Source: Escherichia coli (GTDB lineage: Bacteria > Pseudomonadota > Gammaproteobacteria > Enterobacterales > Enterobacteriaceae). From it: 64,000 bases of DNA. Of the stretch, positions 15,314 to 57,625 are shown one piece after another. The translations under genes were made by a program, and so were the position numbers. Location: NCBI RefSeq assembly GCF_048403405.1, contig NZ_CP183131.1. One strand, 5' to 3'. How positions within the stretch are numbered: the stretch's first letter is position 1; every line of letters begins with the position of its first letter. Under the pieces are notes generated by a model. That model made no database searches, was not told the origin of the DNA, and saw only the letters and a program-made list of their open reading frames with translations.

Positions 15314-15713
15314 CCTTGTACTGCACTTTCAGATCGTAACCATACACTTCCTGATGAAGGACTTTCACGGGGACACCTTCAACGGTCCCCAGGTACACGC
15401 TCAGCTCAACTTCCGGAACATCGTCCCTGAGACCCAGTACATTGCGCCACCCAGTCGATGTCTTCTGGCAGTGAGCGCCCACCCTGTCATGCCGGTAGTA
15501 AATGTCTTTGTTATCTCCTTGGCAGATGAAGAATCCACTAACCTGCCCCGTCCTTAACACCCACTTGCGGTTGTGGAAGGTAGCTTCTTTCTCCACCTCA
15601 GTGGACTTGTCTATAGCCACCGGGCTTACCACCAGCTCTTGTGCGGCCAAATCAGACACAAGGCCTATTACCAACGCGGATAACAGAGCGGCCATAGCCG
15701 CCCGTGTCATCAT
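15285..15713 (-). CDS. Secreted hypothetical protein, paralogous to the periplasmic domain of the 16069-17253 product
   Basis: Signal peptide; shared pattern KW..L.G…G(F/Y)F(I/V)C.G. Confidence 0.5.
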   Translation of the reverse strand: MMTRAAMAALLSALVIGLVSDLAAQELVVSPVAIDKSTEVEKEATFHNRKWVLRTGQVSGFFICQGDNKDIYYRHDRVGAHCQKTSTGWRNVLGLRDDVPEVELSVYLGTVEGVPVKVLHQEVYGYDLKVQYKVARKGSANE

Positions 15714-51583: not shown

Positions 51584-53116
51584 CTATTTGGTCGTGTCCT
51601 CTTCAACTTCTGTCGCTTCTGCGGCCATCTTCATCTGCTTCTCGACCATGCGTTTTTGGGTGATGTAGCGGATAACCATCTCGACAGCGCTGTTCAACGC
51701 AAGGATTCGCATCGCTCTGGTGGATGCAACGTAGAGCAGGTTTATTTCATCGTCACGGGCCATTGGGTCGAGCTCTGGGTCCAGGACATCCGGAAAGTCG
51801 TCATAGAGCTGAACAAAGTCCCACTCCAACCCTTTGCACCGATGAGCTGTTGAGACCGTAATGTCAGCCCCAAACTCTTCTTTGACTGTATTGCGTCGTA
51901 GAGTGGTGAGTCGTTCAGGGATTTCATCGTAGCTGTTGATGATCTTGACAGCCCTCATCATCTCAGGGTCTTTGGTCGCCTTCGCTACTTCTTGATACTC
52001 GAAGTAGTCTTCATACTCATCAAGCAGTTTCTTATTCTTTACCCGGTCTGGCTCTGCCATCGAAAACCAGTACAAATCCTGGAGCTCATTGATCTGGTAA
52101 GCGTCGATTCCACCGACCCAGAATACCTGCGCTCCGGATTCGGTCGCAGAGAGCGCCGTCTCTATAACCCCCATGACGGTTCGGTGAAGTATTGCGCGGT
52201 GGCCCACGTCACCTGGTAAAAACATGAGTACCTGATCTGCTGGTCCCCGGCCAACAACAGGTCGTGTTTCACCTTTGAGTTCAAGAAGGGCGTTTGCCAC
52301 CAGCGAAACGTTGGGGCCAAAGCGGAAGCTATGAGTGAGATAGAGTTGGTCGGCGTTCATGAGCTCTTTGCTATCAAGGGCGTTGTTTGCGCCTCTGAAC
52401 CTATAGATCTGCTGGTGGCGATCTCCAACCAGGATTACCTTGCAGTTCTGCTGTAGGACGATGCTACTTGTTACGGGGTTAGCGTCTTGTGCTTCATCAA
52501 AAAGAATGGTGGTGTACCGGCGAGACAGATTCGGCATCCCGAGCTGATACTGTTTGAGGTAGCAATCGTGTACGGTCGGGAACGGATCTTGAACGTTTGT
52601 CATCCGTTTCCATATGAGCTCAGCACCTTCGACCACCTGGATTTGGTATCTCTCCTGTTTGGACGTAAGCACTTTACCCGTATCGGCGCGAGCAAAATGC
52701 GTATAAAGAATCCGCATGTCTGCACTACACATAAAGGCGTTGAGCGTATCGAGAATATCTTTGGCAAACGTCCAGTTCTTGGTATTCACCGCTTGGGCAA
52801 TATCGGTGAGCCTTAGGTTGCCGGAGAGTTTGTGCTGGTAGCCCCTTCCTATAGTGGCGTAGGCAAGCTGGTGGGACGTTTTGCAGTCTACGTTTGCAGG
52901 AAACTTTTCTCTTGCCTCGTCGCGGATAGCCCTGTTGTATGCCAAGTAGAGGATACGTGAATCGAGGTTGTTGTGGGCGTACTTCACCAGTGTCGTGGTT
53001 TTACCCGTTCCAGCGTAGGCCTTAACGACAAGGCGAGGCCCTTTGTACTGAGTGATCAGTGATTGTTCTGGTGTGTCAGGAGGAAGTTGTTTCATGAGGC
53101 CCCCTACGACAAACAC
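51584..53116 (-). CDS. Superfamily 1 (UvrD/Rep-like) DNA helicase
   Basis: 510 aa; Walker A AGTGKTT, motif II FDEAQD, C-terminal motifs (VSTAHRCKGLEWDFV, LLYVASTRA). Confidence 0.8.
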   Translation of the reverse strand: MFVVGGLMKQLPPDTPEQSLITQYKGPRLVVKAYAGTGKTTTLVKYAHNNLDSRILYLAYNRAIRDEAREKFPANVDCKTSHQLAYATIGRGYQHKLSGNLRLTDIAQAVNTKNWTFAKDILDTLNAFMCSADMRILYTHFARADTGKVLTSKQERYQIQVVEGAELIWKRMTNVQDPFPTVHDCYLKQYQLGMPNLSRRYTTILFDEAQDANPVTSSIVLQQNCKVILVGDRHQQIYRFRGANNALDSKELMNADQLYLTHSFRFGPNVSLVANALLELKGETRPVVGRGPADQVLMFLPGDVGHRAILHRTVMGVIETALSATESGAQVFWVGGIDAYQINELQDLYWFSMAEPDRVKNKKLLDEYEDYFEYQEVAKATKDPEMMRAVKIINSYDEIPERLTTLRRNTVKEEFGADITVSTAHRCKGLEWDFVQLYDDFPDVLDPELDPMARDDEINLLYVASTRAMRILALNSAVEMVIRYITQKRMVEKQMKMAAEATEVEEDTTK

Positions 53117-53382
53117 ATCTGGAGAGTGATGCGCTTCTTTTGTGTCGAGAGGAACGTACTGATCCGCTTTTCTTCTCGGGGGAGGGATACTTCACAATCC
53201 AGATCTGTCCACCAGTCTGGGGCTTTACCTTGAGCCACCTCCGTAACCCAACTATGGAGACGGTGTAACCAGCGATAGTCGCCAATAGATGAGGTGGCTA
53301 GTGTCATAGCCTCCTCAATCTTGGTTTGAAGAGCCGCAGCTCTGTGTCGCCACTCTTCTGAATATTTAGCCTTTCGCGCCAT
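53104..53382 (-). CDS. Hypothetical small protein
   Basis: 92-aa ORF coupled between the KfrA-like gene and the helicase. Confidence 0.4.
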   Translation of the reverse strand: MARKAKYSEEWRHRAAALQTKIEEAMTLATSSIGDYRWLHRLHSWVTEVAQGKAPDWWTDLDCEVSLPREEKRISTFLSTQKKRITLQMCLS

Positions 53383-54422
53383 CAGTTTTCCTCTTTCTTT
53401 TTCCCTCCCTTACCAGCTTTAGCGAGCTCTTGCTCCAACCCAGAAATTTTGGTCAGTGCATCATTGAGTCTTTGTTCGAGGCTCTTGGCCTGCTGGTCTT
53501 TTTCCTGCAACTGACCAGCCATCATGCCTTTGTCTTGAACAAGAGCGCGAGCTTCTGCTTCGGCGCTGGATAATTTGGCGTCCAGCTTTTCTACCTCTCC
53601 AGATAGGCGCTGGCACTCTCGTTCAGCGGATTCGCCATGAGCTTTGGCTGTGGCAAGGGAGTCCTGTGATTGGGCCAGTTTGGCCTGTACATTTTCGAGC
53701 TGCTCTTTCAACGATGTTTTTTGTTCCTGAGCGGCCCGGAGCTTTTCTGTCTGCTCTATACTCTTGCCTTTTTGCTCCTCCAACTCACCCTCTGTAGTTG
53801 CCAATTTTTGGCTCAAAGAGCGATTTTCGCTTTTAGCTTGCTCCAGGTGATCCTGTGCTCGGGTCAGATCTGCGGCTTTCGCCTCCAGCTTGCCCTCCAA
53901 CTCAACGATCCGCTTTTCCAGCTTATCAATGTCAGCCAGTGAGCGTTCTAGCTCCGCAGACTTGAGGGATAGCGAGTTTTCTGCCTTACCAAGGGCCGCA
54001 TCGAGCTCTGATTTTTTGTTGGTGAGAGCTTCAAGTTGTTCCTCCAGTAGCTCAGCCCGTTCGGTGGCATCATTTGCCATGTCCACGGCTTGCTGCATAT
54101 CTTCCTGGTACTCAATTTCTTTCTGTCGTAGCAGTTCACGCTCGCGCTCAAGCTGTTCATCGGCGCTTGCTTTGGCTACCGTATAGATCTTCTGTAGGAA
54201 GAGCTCAGCATCGCTCATAACCGATTCTGGAAGGACTACCTCTACCAGCTCTTCATCGAGGGAGTGTTCCTCTGACCACTGTTTGAGATACGTTGAAATG
54301 GTGGTAAAGCTCCCCTTGCCAATGATGTCTCTGATAGCGATGACCGTTGGGCGTTTACCGGCGTCCTTGAGCTTTTGGGCCGCAGCCGCTACATCGTCAA
54401 ACTCAACCAATTTTCTTGCCAT
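53382..54422 (-). CDS. KfrA-like protein (N-terminal DNA-binding domain plus long coiled coil)
   Basis: 346 aa; N-terminus MARKLVEFDDVAAAAQKLKDAGKRPTVIAIRDIIGKGS…; remainder is heptad-rich E/K/A/L/Q. Confidence 0.65.
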   Translation of the reverse strand: MARKLVEFDDVAAAAQKLKDAGKRPTVIAIRDIIGKGSFTTISTYLKQWSEEHSLDEELVEVVLPESVMSDAELFLQKIYTVAKASADEQLERERELLRQKEIEYQEDMQQAVDMANDATERAELLEEQLEALTNKKSELDAALGKAENSLSLKSAELERSLADIDKLEKRIVELEGKLEAKAADLTRAQDHLEQAKSENRSLSQKLATTEGELEEQKGKSIEQTEKLRAAQEQKTSLKEQLENVQAKLAQSQDSLATAKAHGESAERECQRLSGEVEKLDAKLSSAEAEARALVQDKGMMAGQLQEKDQQAKSLEQRLNDALTKISGLEQELAKAGKGGKKKEEN

Positions 54423-54450
54423 GAGAACGTTCCTTTTAATTTGTAATGTT

Positions 54451-54495
54451 TACGATAATTACGATAATTACGATAATTACGATAATTACGATAAT
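54451..54495. repeat. Tandem 9-bp repeat (tacgataat) x5 plus degenerate copies
   Basis: Five perfect head-to-tail copies 29 bp upstream of the KfrA-like start. Confidence 0.9.
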
Positions 54496-54608
54496 ACGGT
54501 AATTATCATAATTATATATCATGCTGCTGTCGATTGGAATTGTTTGTGTGGGACAAAGCCCTTCCGGCTGCGGAAAAGCCTTGTTACGCGGTCACGCTGA
54601 TTCATCCA

Positions 54609-54646
54609 GGGGGAGCCCGCAGAATTCGGAAAAAATCGTACGCTAA
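54609..54646. repeat. 38-bp terminal inverted repeat of a Tn1721-type (Tn21 subgroup) transposon
   Basis: ggggagcccgcagaattcggaaaaaatcgtacgctaag; the tnpA stop lies inside it. Confidence 0.8.
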
Positions 54647-56159
54647 GGTTTTCCGGGCATCCGTAAGGGCCGAAACTTCCCGTCTTCCAGTCTGCGGCTC
54701 TGCCGCCAGACGTAATCGCCGGTTAGGTTGATGTGCTCCCAGCCCAGCGGCGACAGGAATTGCAGCAGCTCGCCGTCCACCGGCTTGCCGGCCTCGACCA
54801 ACCCCTGGGTGGCGCGTTCCAGGTACACCGTGTTCCACAGCACGATAGCCGCCGTCACCAGGTTGAGGCCGCTGGCCCGGTAGCGCTGCTGCTCGAAGCT
54901 CCGATCCCTGATTTCCCCAAGGCGGTTGAAGAACACCGCCCTGGCCAGCGAGTTGCGCGCCTCACCTTTGTTCAGGCCGGCATGCACGCGGCGGCGCAGT
55001 TCAACACTTTGCAGCCAGTCCAGGATGAACAGCGTGCGCTCGATCCGGCCCAGCTCGCGCAGGGCCACGGCCAGTCCGTTCTGGCGCGGGTAGCTGCCGA
55101 GCTTGCGCAGCATCAGCGAGGCGGTGACGGTGCCCTGCTTGATCGAGCTGGCCAGGCGCAGGATGTCGTCCCAGTGGGCACGCACGTGCTTGATGTTCAG
55201 GGTGCCGCCGATCAGCGGGCGCAACGTCGGGTAGGCTTGCACGCCCTGCGGCACGTACAGCTTGGTTTCGCCGAGGTCGCGGATGCGCGGCGCGAAGCGG
55301 AAGCCTAGCAGGTGCATCAGGGCAAAGACGTGATCGGTGAAGCCGGCCGTGTCGGTGTAGTGCTCCTCGATCCGCAGGTCGGACTCGTGGTACAGCAGGC
55401 CGTCGAGCACATAGGTGGAATCGCGGACGCCGACATTCACCACGCGGGTGCTGAACGGCGCGTACTGGTCGGAGATATGGGTATAGAACAGCCGTCCCGG
55501 CTCGCTACCGTACTTCGGGTTGACGTGCCCGGTGCTCTCGCCCCGGCCACCCGCGCGGAAGCGCTGGCCATCGGAGGATGAGGTCGTGCCGTCGCCCCAG
55601 TGGGCGGCAAAGGCGTGGCGATACTGGTGGTTGACCAGCTCGGCCAAGGCCGCCGAATAGGTTTCGTCGCGGATGTGCCAGGCTTGCAGCCAGGACAGCT
55701 TGGCGTAGGTCAGGCCGGGGCTCGACTCGGCCATCTTGGTCAGCCCGAGGTTGATCGCATCACCGAGGATTGCGGACAGCAGCAACGTCCTGTCTTTGGC
55801 CTCGGCCCCGTCCTTCAAGTGGGTGAAGTGGCGGCTGAAGCCCGTCCAGTCGTCCACGTCCATCAGCAGTTCGGTGATCTTGATGCGCGGCAGTAACTGG
55901 CTGGTTTGGTCGATCAGCGCCTGCGCCCGATCCGGCACCGCCGCATCCAGCGGGGTGATTTTCAGCCCTGACTCGGTGAGGATGGCATCGGGCAGCTCGT
56001 TGTCCTTGGCCAGGCGGGTGACGGTGGCCAACTGCTCGTCCAGCAGCTGCAAACGCTCTTCCAGGTACTGGTCGCTGTTCGGGTTGATCGCCAGGGGCAG
56101 GGCCTGCTCGCGCTTGAGTGCGGCGAACTTCTCGGCCGGCAGCAGGTAGTCGTCGAAGT
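54643..56159 (-). pseudogene. tnpA: Tn3-family transposase tnpA, 3' portion (Tn1721-like), 5' end removed by IS26
   Basis: 505 codons of TnpA C-terminus ending in the IR; ORF reads into the IS26 IR at 56160. Confidence 0.85.
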
Positions 56160-56979
56160 GGCACTGTTGCAAATAGTCGGTGGTGATAAACTTATCATCC
56201 CCTTTTGCTGATGGAGCTGCACATGAACCCATTCAAAGGCCGGCATTTTCAGCGTGACATCATTCTGTGGGCCGTACGCTGGTACTGCAAATACGGCATC
56301 AGTTACCGTGAGCTGCAGGAGATGCTTGCTGAACGCGGAGTGAATGTCGATCACTCCACGATTTACCGCTGGGTTCAGCGTTATGCGCCTGAAATGGAAA
56401 AACGGCTGCGCTGGTACTGGCGTAACCCTTCCGATCTTTGCCCGTGGCACATGGATGAAACCTACGTGAAGGTCAATGGCCGCTGGGCGTATCTGTACCG
56501 GGCCGTCGACAGCCGGGGCCGCACTGTCGATTTTTATCTCTCCTCCCGTCGTAACAGCAAAGCTGCATACCGGTTTCTGGGTAAAATCCTCAACAACGTG
56601 AAGAAGTGGCAGATCCCGCGATTCATCAACACGGATAAAGCGCCCGCCTATGGTCGCGCGCTTGCTCTGCTCAAACGCGAAGGCCGGTGCCCGTCTGACG
56701 TTGAACACCGACAGATTAAGTACCGGAACAACGTGATTGAATGCGATCATAGCAAACTGAAACGGATAATCGGCGCCACGCTGGGATTTAAATCCATGAA
56801 GACGGCTTACGCCACCATCAAAGGTATTGAGGTGATGCGTGCACTACGCAAAGGCCAGGCCTCAGCATTTTATTATGGTGATCCCCTGGGCGAAATGCGC
56901 CTGGTAAGCAGAGTTTTTGAAATGTAAGGCCTTTGAATAAGACAAAAGGCTGCCTCATCGCTAACTTTGCAACAGTGCC
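56160..56979 (+). mobile_element. IS26: IS26 variant copy, 820 bp (tnp26 56223-56927)
   Basis: Terminal IRs intact; carries Tnp26 Gly177Ser (…ECDHSKLK…) and a synonymous ctg>ctt change shared with the copy at 59588-60407. Confidence 0.96.
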
Positions 56980-57025
56980 TTTAAGCGTGCATAATAAGCC
57001 CTACACAAATTGGGAGTTAGACATC

Positions 57026-57625
57026 ATGAGCAACGCAAAAACAAAGTTAGGCATCACAAAGTACAGCATCGTGACCAACAGCAACGATTCCGTCACACTG
57101 CGCCTCATGACTGAGCATGACCTTGCGATGCTCTATGAGTGGCTAAATCGATCTCATATCGTCGAGTGGTGGGGCGGAGAAGAAGCACGCCCGACACTTG
57201 CTGACGTACAGGAACAGTACTTGCCAAGCGTTTTAGCGCAAGAGTCCGTCACTCCATACATTGCAATGCTGAATGGAGAGCCGATTGGGTATGCCCAGTC
57301 GTACGTTGCTCTTGGAAGCGGGGACGGACGGTGGGAAGAAGAAACCGATCCAGGAGTACGCGGAATAGACCAGTTACTGGCGAATGCATCACAACTGGGC
57401 AAAGGCTTGGGAACCAAGCTGGTTCGAGCTCTGGTTGAGTTGCTGTTCAATGATCCCGAGGTCACCAAGATCCAAACGGACCCGTCGCCGAGCAACTTGC
57501 GAGCGATCCGATGCTACGAGAAAGCGGGGTTTGAGAGGCAAGGTACCGTAACCACCCCATATGGTCCAGCCGTGTACATGGTTCAAACACGCCAGGCATT
57601 CGAGCGAACACGCAGTGATGCCTAA
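57026..57625 (+). CDS. aac(6')-Ib-cr: Aminoglycoside/fluoroquinolone acetyltransferase AAC(6')-Ib-cr
   Basis: 199 aa; both signature substitutions present: Trp102Arg ([10 protein letters not shown]) and Asp179Tyr (TTPYGPAVY); ORF-track N-terminal extension into IS26 rejected. Confidence 0.9.

Follow-up and report, generated by a model that had tools for sequence, protein, structure and literature searches.

A length-variable array of 9-bp units upstream of kfrA in IncC plasmids, a probable operator for KfrA

The closest described relative of the element considered here comes from the IncU plasmid RA3, in which an operator made up of five 9-bp repeats, TGTATTGTA, overlaps kfrAp and allows KfrA to repress this promoter, its own, by a factor of more than 200 (Lewicka et al. 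2021, PMC7783346). In vivo, at least two RA3 units are required; binding in vitro takes at least three, and full repression four. The authors propose that a KfrA dimer sits at the interfaces between units (TAT). The KfrA proteins of R751 and pPOP15.9 recognise iterated motifs as well, while RK2 KfrA targets an imperfect palindrome of 24 nt, and KorA and KorB exert additional control over IncP-1 kfrA (PMC7783346). Here we describe an array of tandem 9-bp units that lies directly upstream of a kfrA gene in a 64,000-nucleotide stretch of Escherichia coli contig NZ_CP183131.1, hereafter the window; this region of the window is the backbone of an IncC (A/C2) conjugative plasmid. Judged by its sequence and by analogy, the array most probably corresponds, in IncC, to the operator that KfrA uses in RA3. 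The searchable literature contained no description of the array (a search with the repeat sequence gave unrelated primers only) and no functional study of IncC kfrA.

The array and its place at the kfrA promoter

Read on the strand of kfrA, the array consists of five perfect head-to-tail copies of ATTATCGTA (TACGATAAT on the + strand), just as the original prediction had stated, and these are adjoined by two imperfect units, ATTACCGT and ATTATGATA (Table 1). Tandem Repeats Finder reported 7.3 copies with a period of 9 at 54450-54514, a tract longer than five units because the two imperfect ones adjoin the perfect ones. The 9-mer has no match elsewhere in the window, where 0.23 would be expected by chance, and five copies were reached in none of 100 shuffles. 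The palindromic hexamer TAATTA is formed at every unit junction and hence recurs each 9 bp. In addition, one unit is present in inverted form (ATTATCATA on the + strand, 54502-54510), and a 15-bp palindrome, TAATTATCATAATTA, at 54500-54514 spans the -10 hexamer of the predicted kfrA promoter. The gap between the array and the ATG at 54422 measures 28 bp; the location given earlier was right, the distance of 29 bp was not. With five perfect and two imperfect units at 54451-54512, the locus shows what is expected of an iterated KfrA operator, namely at least three short repeats of about 9 bp at a kfrA promoter.

A promoter scan of this region, whose G+C content is 27%, found three promoter-like sites against 0.5 expected, and the only one on the kfrA strand is TCGACA-17-TATGAT. 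Its -10 hexamer falls within the imperfect unit ATTATGATA, and its 17-bp spacer is identical in every aligned plasmid. Given a transcription start at the predicted position, the perfect units would fill the stretch between the promoter and the ribosome-binding site, at about +3 to +48 of the kfrA leader, and they stop 14 bp short of AAAGGAA. The remaining two calls stem from the array itself, since each unit reads GATAAT on the + strand: TTGTAA-16-GATAAT and TTTACG-17-GATAAT (54441-54477) both run antisense, away from kfrA and toward the transposon, and are probably incidental.

The kfrA product, which in the PLSDB records is WP_000101568.1, matches the KfrA_N domain (Pfam PF11740) over residues 9-121 with E = 8.8e-23 and 81.6 bits against a cut-off of 26.1. 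From residue 66 to residue 346 it contains no proline, 64% of the residues are E, K, L, A or Q, and a leucine-zipper coiled-coil family is matched at E = 4.5e-10, so that by these sequence proxies the tail is a coiled coil. A PDB sequence search with KfrA gave spurious coiled-coil matches only and no solved KfrA relative. Within the helix-turn-helix, R31, G37, S38 and W49 are invariant across eight aligned KfrA_N proteins and I42 stands at the position of RA3 I44. The residues essential in RA3 (R33, G39, S40, I44 and W51) are matched in IncC KfrA, the RA3 protein having been compared through its description in PMC7783346 rather than by alignment, with its numbering mapped via the motif given there.

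These features place the locus close to RA3. In both plasmids a protein with a KfrA_N domain and a coiled coil has 9-bp iterated units at its own promoter (five perfect units here, five units in RA3), a short symmetric element is found at the unit junctions (TAATTA here, TAT in RA3), and KfrA carries a basic C-terminal tip. The two systems differ in the motif, which is ATTATCGTA in IncC and TGTATTGTA in RA3, and in transcriptional context, since RA3 kfrA is monocistronic whereas two further genes follow IncC kfrA. Binding has been proven for RA3 KfrA, while the IncC operator is putative and known from sequence. The IncP-1 plasmids RK2 and R751 resemble the IncC arrangement in that kfrA is autoregulated, putatively so in IncC, and comes first in an operon of several genes.

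Repeat number and motif among related plasmids

The segment 53382-54608 is shared at 100% identity with eight IncC plasmids of Klebsiella pneumoniae, pIncC-L121 among them, and at more than 95% with about 940 other PLSDB records. We searched PLSDB with a 201-bp query containing four units, which matched 943 records. The best-matching band, at an identity of at least 99%, comprised 68 records with four units, although about eight of these seem to be partial matches and not full four-unit alleles. Between 95 and 99% were 330 records, mostly with three units plus those with five; between 90 and 95% were 510 records with two units; and between 80 and 90% were 35 records from divergent lineages. 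Across the roughly 940 records, most of which encode an identical KfrA, two perfect units account for about 54%, three for about 34% and four for about 6%. Of the ranked matches, 60 rows taken at even intervals showed spans of 201 bp in 4 cases, 192 bp in 20 and 183 bp in 32, along with a few variants. The five-unit allele is limited to eight PLSDB records, all from K. pneumoniae. A synthetic six-unit query found no PLSDB record matching at full length and 100% identity; its identity bands are unusable, since short alleles were aligned by BLAST in two separate pieces. No allele larger than that of the window was seen.

Individual plasmids illustrate the series: pSCEC2 has two units, pSH696_135 three, NZ_CP038466 (from Aeromonas hydrophila) four and the window five, with otherwise identical flanks, and all of the example plasmids with differing unit number encode WP_000101568.1. 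Furthermore, in the lineage that shares the transposon junction described below, a plasmid with four units measures 176,336 bp and those with five units 176,345 bp, a difference of exactly 9 bp. A unit number of two to five alongside an identical KfrA, together with this 9-bp difference in plasmid length, shows that the tract slips. The comparison of related plasmids therefore bears out the earlier suspicion of a slippage-prone tract, the repeat number being anything but constant. Natural variation of this kind is not mentioned for RA3 in the accessible part of PMC7783346. The imperfect units occur in most of the plasmids aligned, the divergent ones included: of nine, all have ATTATGATA and seven have ATTACCGT, which is absent from pVC1447, where the unit was lost, and from the Xenorhabdus plasmid pXT141. 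In a Salmonella Dublin plasmid the ATTACCGT unit has been converted to ATTATCGTA; this plasmid and pVC1447 likewise code for WP_000101568.1.

IncC backbones also contain a second cluster of the same motif, which lies outside the window, about 5 kb upstream of kfrA and beyond the resistance island (115387-115421 of pSCEC2, NC_022377.1, equivalent to 15587-15621 of our record L018; about 36577-36611 of L027, which represents pIncC-L121). It consists of (ATTACCGT)n followed by AATTATGATAATTACGGTAA and includes a 27-bp perfect palindrome. The cluster sits between two divergent genes without assigned function, at the head of a co-directional string of int, exo, the Tus-like gene and kfrA. Among about 940 records it varies in steps of 8 bp, n being 2 in pSCEC2 and pIncC-L121, 3 in pSH696_135 and 4 in pNDM-SAL. 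This variation is independent of that at kfrA, the pairs seen (kfrA site/second site) including 2/2, 3/3, 4/2, 5/2 and 2/3. A single site of the RA3 type is hence found in the window and in the distant Aeromonas caviae plasmid pKAM497_1 (complete at 192.6 kb, with its sole motif cluster at kfrA), and not in IncC backbones as a whole. As a separate observation, a promoter-like element, CTACTTATTAAAATG…CTTTGAAAAAGTAG…GGAATAGGATAG, is common to IncC (pSCEC2, L018 15640-15712), where it lies just downstream of the second cluster, and to pKAM497_1 (about 172400-172470), where it lies upstream of the counterpart of a 178-aa gene, the one preceding int; outside this element the intergenic region shows no conservation.

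We next looked at whether the motif goes with the protein in more distant relatives of KfrA. A word-indexed protein search with the N-terminal domain yielded three useful loci, most of its matches being fragments of the same protein. Those kfrA orthologues in which the recognition helix TTIS[T/K]YLK[Q/R]W is conserved have a motif family, ATTAYNRTA, immediately upstream, even though their N-terminal domains are only 50-70% identical. In pKAM497_1, whose domain is about 50% identical, it takes the form of two copies of AATTACGAT together with ATCATAATTACGGT as a perfect inverted repeat of 14 bp; in Photorhabdus (L029), a KfrA_N protein of 107 aa is preceded by ATTATAATA, ATTACCATA and ATTATGATA; and the family is likewise present upstream of kfrA in a metagenome contig (L028), in Xenorhabdus pXT141 and in two divergent IncC-type plasmids. 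These divergent relatives carry three or four imperfect units. Where the helix is different, so is the repeat: a Comamonas KfrA_N protein is preceded by two copies of TATCATATCTGTATT, a Thauera protein by TGTTGTA, and the KfrA_N protein of the IncP-1 plasmid pMCBF6, with the helix TTISEAMNEW, by TGTATTGTA (TGTTGTA) and an inverted repeat of TGTTGTAG. The same motif thus occurs in five lineages and other repeats in three, a small and correlative sample. This co-variation of motif and recognition helix is the pattern expected of a matched pair of protein and operator.

Candidate binders and roles of the array

The reading that we favour, and consider probable from the sequence comparisons and the RA3 precedent, is that the array is the operator through which IncC KfrA represses its own gene. 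KfrA dimers would bind the tandem units cooperatively via the N-terminal helix-turn-helix domain; as the units begin within the -10 hexamer and extend about 50 bp into the leader, an occupied array would block RNA polymerase or its escape, so that kfrA, and probably also the co-directional orf92 and UvrD-like helicase genes, would be autorepressed. The bound array may in addition tether a coiled-coil KfrA scaffold to the plasmid, as has been proposed for RA3. Replication slippage or unequal exchange could gain or lose whole units, these being perfect head-to-tail copies, and a four-unit allele, in a single Klebsiella plasmid lineage that bears the transposon, probably gave rise in this way to the five-unit allele of the window. 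The original prediction of a binding-site array upstream of an autoregulated kfrA is thereby supported as far as sequence can show, with the motif kept upstream of diverged kfrA orthologues and RA3 as precedent.

Several points weigh against this reading. The searchable literature contained no binding data, footprint or mapped transcription start for IncC KfrA. The perfect IncC units all run in one direction downstream of the -10 hexamer, whereas the RA3 units are set three plus two in opposite orientations round the -35 and -10; and IncC has its second cluster 5 kb away, near genes without assigned function, whereas RA3 has one genomic site. With this second cluster and a layout unlike that of RA3, the binder could therefore be a protein other than KfrA. 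Moreover, the commonest allele has only two perfect units, and extra units may do nothing.

If the motif were the operator of another protein, candidates would be a plasmid regulator whose gene lies close to the second cluster, such as the 200-aa product of HTB81_RS00720, or a nucleoid-associated protein, for instance H-NS of the plasmid or the host. The position of the second cluster, between two divergent genes at a distance from kfrA, is consistent with such a binder, as is the existence of a 40%-identical homologue of the 200-aa protein in pKAM497_1. H-NS favours AT-rich DNA with TpA steps, the region upstream of kfrA is poor in G+C, and IncC plasmids encode an H-NS-family protein. However, exact 9-bp phasing of a specific word is atypical of H-NS sites. 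In pKAM497_1 the motif is clustered at kfrA alone and is not found beside the homologue of the 200-aa protein, and the other neighbour of the second IncC cluster, a 93-aa protein, has no homologue there. The motif is kept where the KfrA recognition helix is kept and altered where the helix is altered. We therefore regard a binder other than KfrA as unlikely.

Alternatively, KfrA might bind the array mainly for an architectural purpose: the KfrA scaffold would be loaded at the units, which would anchor it much as a centromere does and so serve to position the plasmid, and autorepression would be a side effect. Stable maintenance of RA3 needs the specific binding of KfrA to its operator, and RA3 KfrA contacts partition proteins (PMC7783346); IncC KfrA has the same build, with its 281-residue proline-free tail and basic C-terminal tip, and arrays of up to seven units exceed the number that repression in RA3 needs. 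Nevertheless, the array overlaps the predicted -10 and start region, the classical position of a repressor, and is distant both from parAB and from the ParM/StbA-family gene. A mainly architectural role seems to us quite improbable, although such a role is compatible with KfrA acting as a repressor here. We also considered whether the array might be a replication iteron or a partition centromere proper, and rejected this candidate: the units are 9 bp long, and in pSCEC2 the array lies at 120.3 kb, away from the rep and par genes (replication initiator gene at 1-1101, parA/korB-like genes at 31.8-33.8 kb and the ParM/StbA-family gene at 133.3 kb). Replication iterons are usually 17-22 bp.

A further possibility is that the perfect units are a functionless microsatellite, grown by slippage from a short ancestral operator, whose copy number drifts neutrally. 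The occurrence of two to five units alongside an identical KfrA, the sufficiency of three or four imperfect units in divergent relatives and the restriction of the five-unit allele to eight records would all be accommodated. On the other hand, the unit that has expanded is the conserved motif itself, so that each added copy is one more potential site; whole-unit expansion is seen at the second cluster too; and in RA3 the number of units alters both affinity and repression (PMC7783346). We hold neutral drift to be improbable. A more far-reaching reading would be a small KfrA regulon acting through two independently length-variable operator arrays (two to five units in 9-bp steps at kfrA, two to four units in 8-bp steps at the head of the int-exo-Tus-like string), in which slippage serves as a heritable rheostat for KfrA dosage and thus for plasmid positioning or stability as the plasmid passes from host to host, and the five-unit allele in a Taiwanese Klebsiella lineage is an adaptive retuning rather than drift; this is a speculation, and a doubtful one.

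A role of the repeats at the RNA level, as a structured part of the leader or as the site of an RNA-binding protein controlling translation or stability, was rejected as very improbable: the perfect units would be transcribed if the predicted promoter is correct, but the leader folds no better than shuffled sequences (z = 0.28 for five units and 2.5 for two), the ribosome-binding site stays free of pairing at either number, and the motif occurs in both orientations in pKAM497_1 and the metagenome contig, which suits recognition of DNA rather than RNA. A phase-variable contingency repeat was rejected as well. The array resembles short-repeat contingency loci in being a perfect short tandem array whose unit number differs between close relatives; however, the variable units lie between the predicted -10 and the ribosome-binding site and not in an open reading frame or in the -35/-10 spacer, so that changes in unit number cannot switch kfrA on or off by spacing or frame and could at most tune the strength of the operator.

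Neighbouring genes, the transposon end and meaning for IncC plasmids

Table 1. Features of the kfrA region, in window coordinates
Feature	Position	Strand	Basis or remark
UvrD-like helicase gene, ahead of traFHG	51584-53116	-	Open reading frame and family match
orf92, 92 codons; start overlaps the kfrA stop (ATGA)	53104-53382	-	No Pfam match; annotated in Xenorhabdus pXT141
kfrA, 346 aa; N-terminal KfrA_N helix-turn-helix domain, 281-residue proline-free tail, basic tip KAGKGGKKKEEN	53382-54422	-	Pfam, sequence
Shine-Dalgarno sequence AAAGGAA, 7 nt before the ATG	54430-54436	-	Direct reading of the sequence
Five perfect 9-bp units	54451-54495	-	Head-to-tail
Two imperfect units: ATTACCGT (54496-54503) and ATTATGATA (54504-54512)	54496-54512	-	Tandem Repeats Finder
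Predicted sigma-70 promoter of kfrA: TCGACA (54533-54528), 17-bp spacer, TATGAT (54510-54505)	54505-54533	-	10/12 consensus positions
14-bp stem-loop just after the Tus-like stop	54553-54584	-	-21.9 kcal/mol, z = -1.7
Last 8 bases of the Tus-like open reading frame: target-site copy CTGGA (54609-54605) and stop TGA (54604-54602)	54602-54609	-	
38-bp terminal inverted repeat GGGGAGCCCGCAGAATTCGGAAAAAATCGTACGCTAAG of a Tn1721/TnAs1-type Tn3-family transposon	54610-54647	+	Sequence, PLSDB annotation
Tn3-family transposase gene, 3' portion	54643-56159	-	DDE_Tnp_Tn3, E = 7e-156

Downstream of kfrA, orf92 overlaps the UvrD-like helicase gene in its turn, and traF, traH and traG come next in the same direction (Table 1). 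It is probable that orf92 is co-transcribed with kfrA and that the helicase gene is the last gene of the kfrA operon. The order Tus-like gene, kfrA, UvrD-like helicase gene, traFHG is retained in the distant pKAM497_1, and the metagenome contig L028 has the order Tus-like gene, kfrA, small open reading frames, UvrD-like helicase gene. Because the order is retained in both, the Tus-like, kfrA and UvrD-like helicase genes appear to form a conserved functional module, as far as gene order can suggest one.

On its other side, the array is followed by the end of a transposon, which the original prediction had identified as of Tn1721 type, placed at 54609 and put about 110 bp upstream. The Tn1721/TnAs1-type identity held up, on the strength of the 38-bp repeat, an adjacent gene for a Tn3-type DDE transposase and a 5-bp target duplication; the coordinate was one base off, and the repeat lies 114 bp from the last perfect unit. 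An identical junction is present in 58 PLSDB records, among them pKPHS3 of K. pneumoniae HS11286; the genes that cover the junction in these records are annotated as 'transposase for transposon Tn1721' or 'TnAs1 family transposase'. The transposon of pIncC-L121 has both of its ends, the second repeat with three mismatches, and they are flanked by a 5-bp duplication, CTGGA. The uninterrupted IncC plasmid of A. hydrophila, NZ_CP038466, shows that the native neighbour of kfrA is a gene of the Tus/Ter family (Pfam Ter, E = 2.9e-46) and that the insertion point is five bases before its stop codon. The Tus-like frame of pIncC-L121 (L027 41417-41463) has retained all of its residues and gained 13 codons, ending in …SFPGGGTAEFGKNRTLS before the stop; in the window we found none of the remainder of this gene, which lies outside it.

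From 54609 down to the ATG, the window is uninterrupted IncC sequence when compared with NZ_CP038466, except for the one extra repeat unit. The suggestion that the transposon end had displaced the native promoter context was not upheld, because all 187 native bases upstream of kfrA remain, the predicted promoter included. The stem-loop after the Tus-like gene is also retained beside the transposon; it is possibly a terminator, although it has no U tract and was not reported by the terminator scan. Read-through transcription from the Tus-like gene may be the only thing that the insertion could have removed.

The transposon shares its 38-bp terminal repeat, DDE_Tnp_Tn3 gene and 5-bp duplication with Tn1721/TnAs1 of the Tn3 family; here it is truncated after about 1.5 kb and provides context only. 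The match to pIncC-L121 ends at 56159, where the transposase gene breaks off, beside an insertion-sequence transposase frame (56205-56927) that we take to be IS26, and the island of the window is therefore a rearranged derivative of that of pIncC-L121. The product of the adjacent frame at 56933-57625 resembles AAC(6')-Ib, presumably the -cr variant to judge by the two substitutions in …GDGRWEE… and …TTPYGPA….

In Enterobacterales and Vibrio, IncC plasmids rank among the chief vehicles of multidrug resistance, and their kfrA is conserved. As far as the searchable literature goes, neither the natural differences in unit number nor a second cluster that varies in length has been described. Both features have a practical side, in that the two length-variable arrays offer cheap markers for sub-lineages within near-identical IncC backbones, and assemblies and alignments are expected to disagree by multiples of 9 or 8 bp at these two places. 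The biology is an expected extension of the work on RA3 rather than a surprise. Nonetheless, a probable operator, a second probable target and natural alleles of two to five units together make up a ready-made experimental series on the role of KfrA in IncC plasmids.

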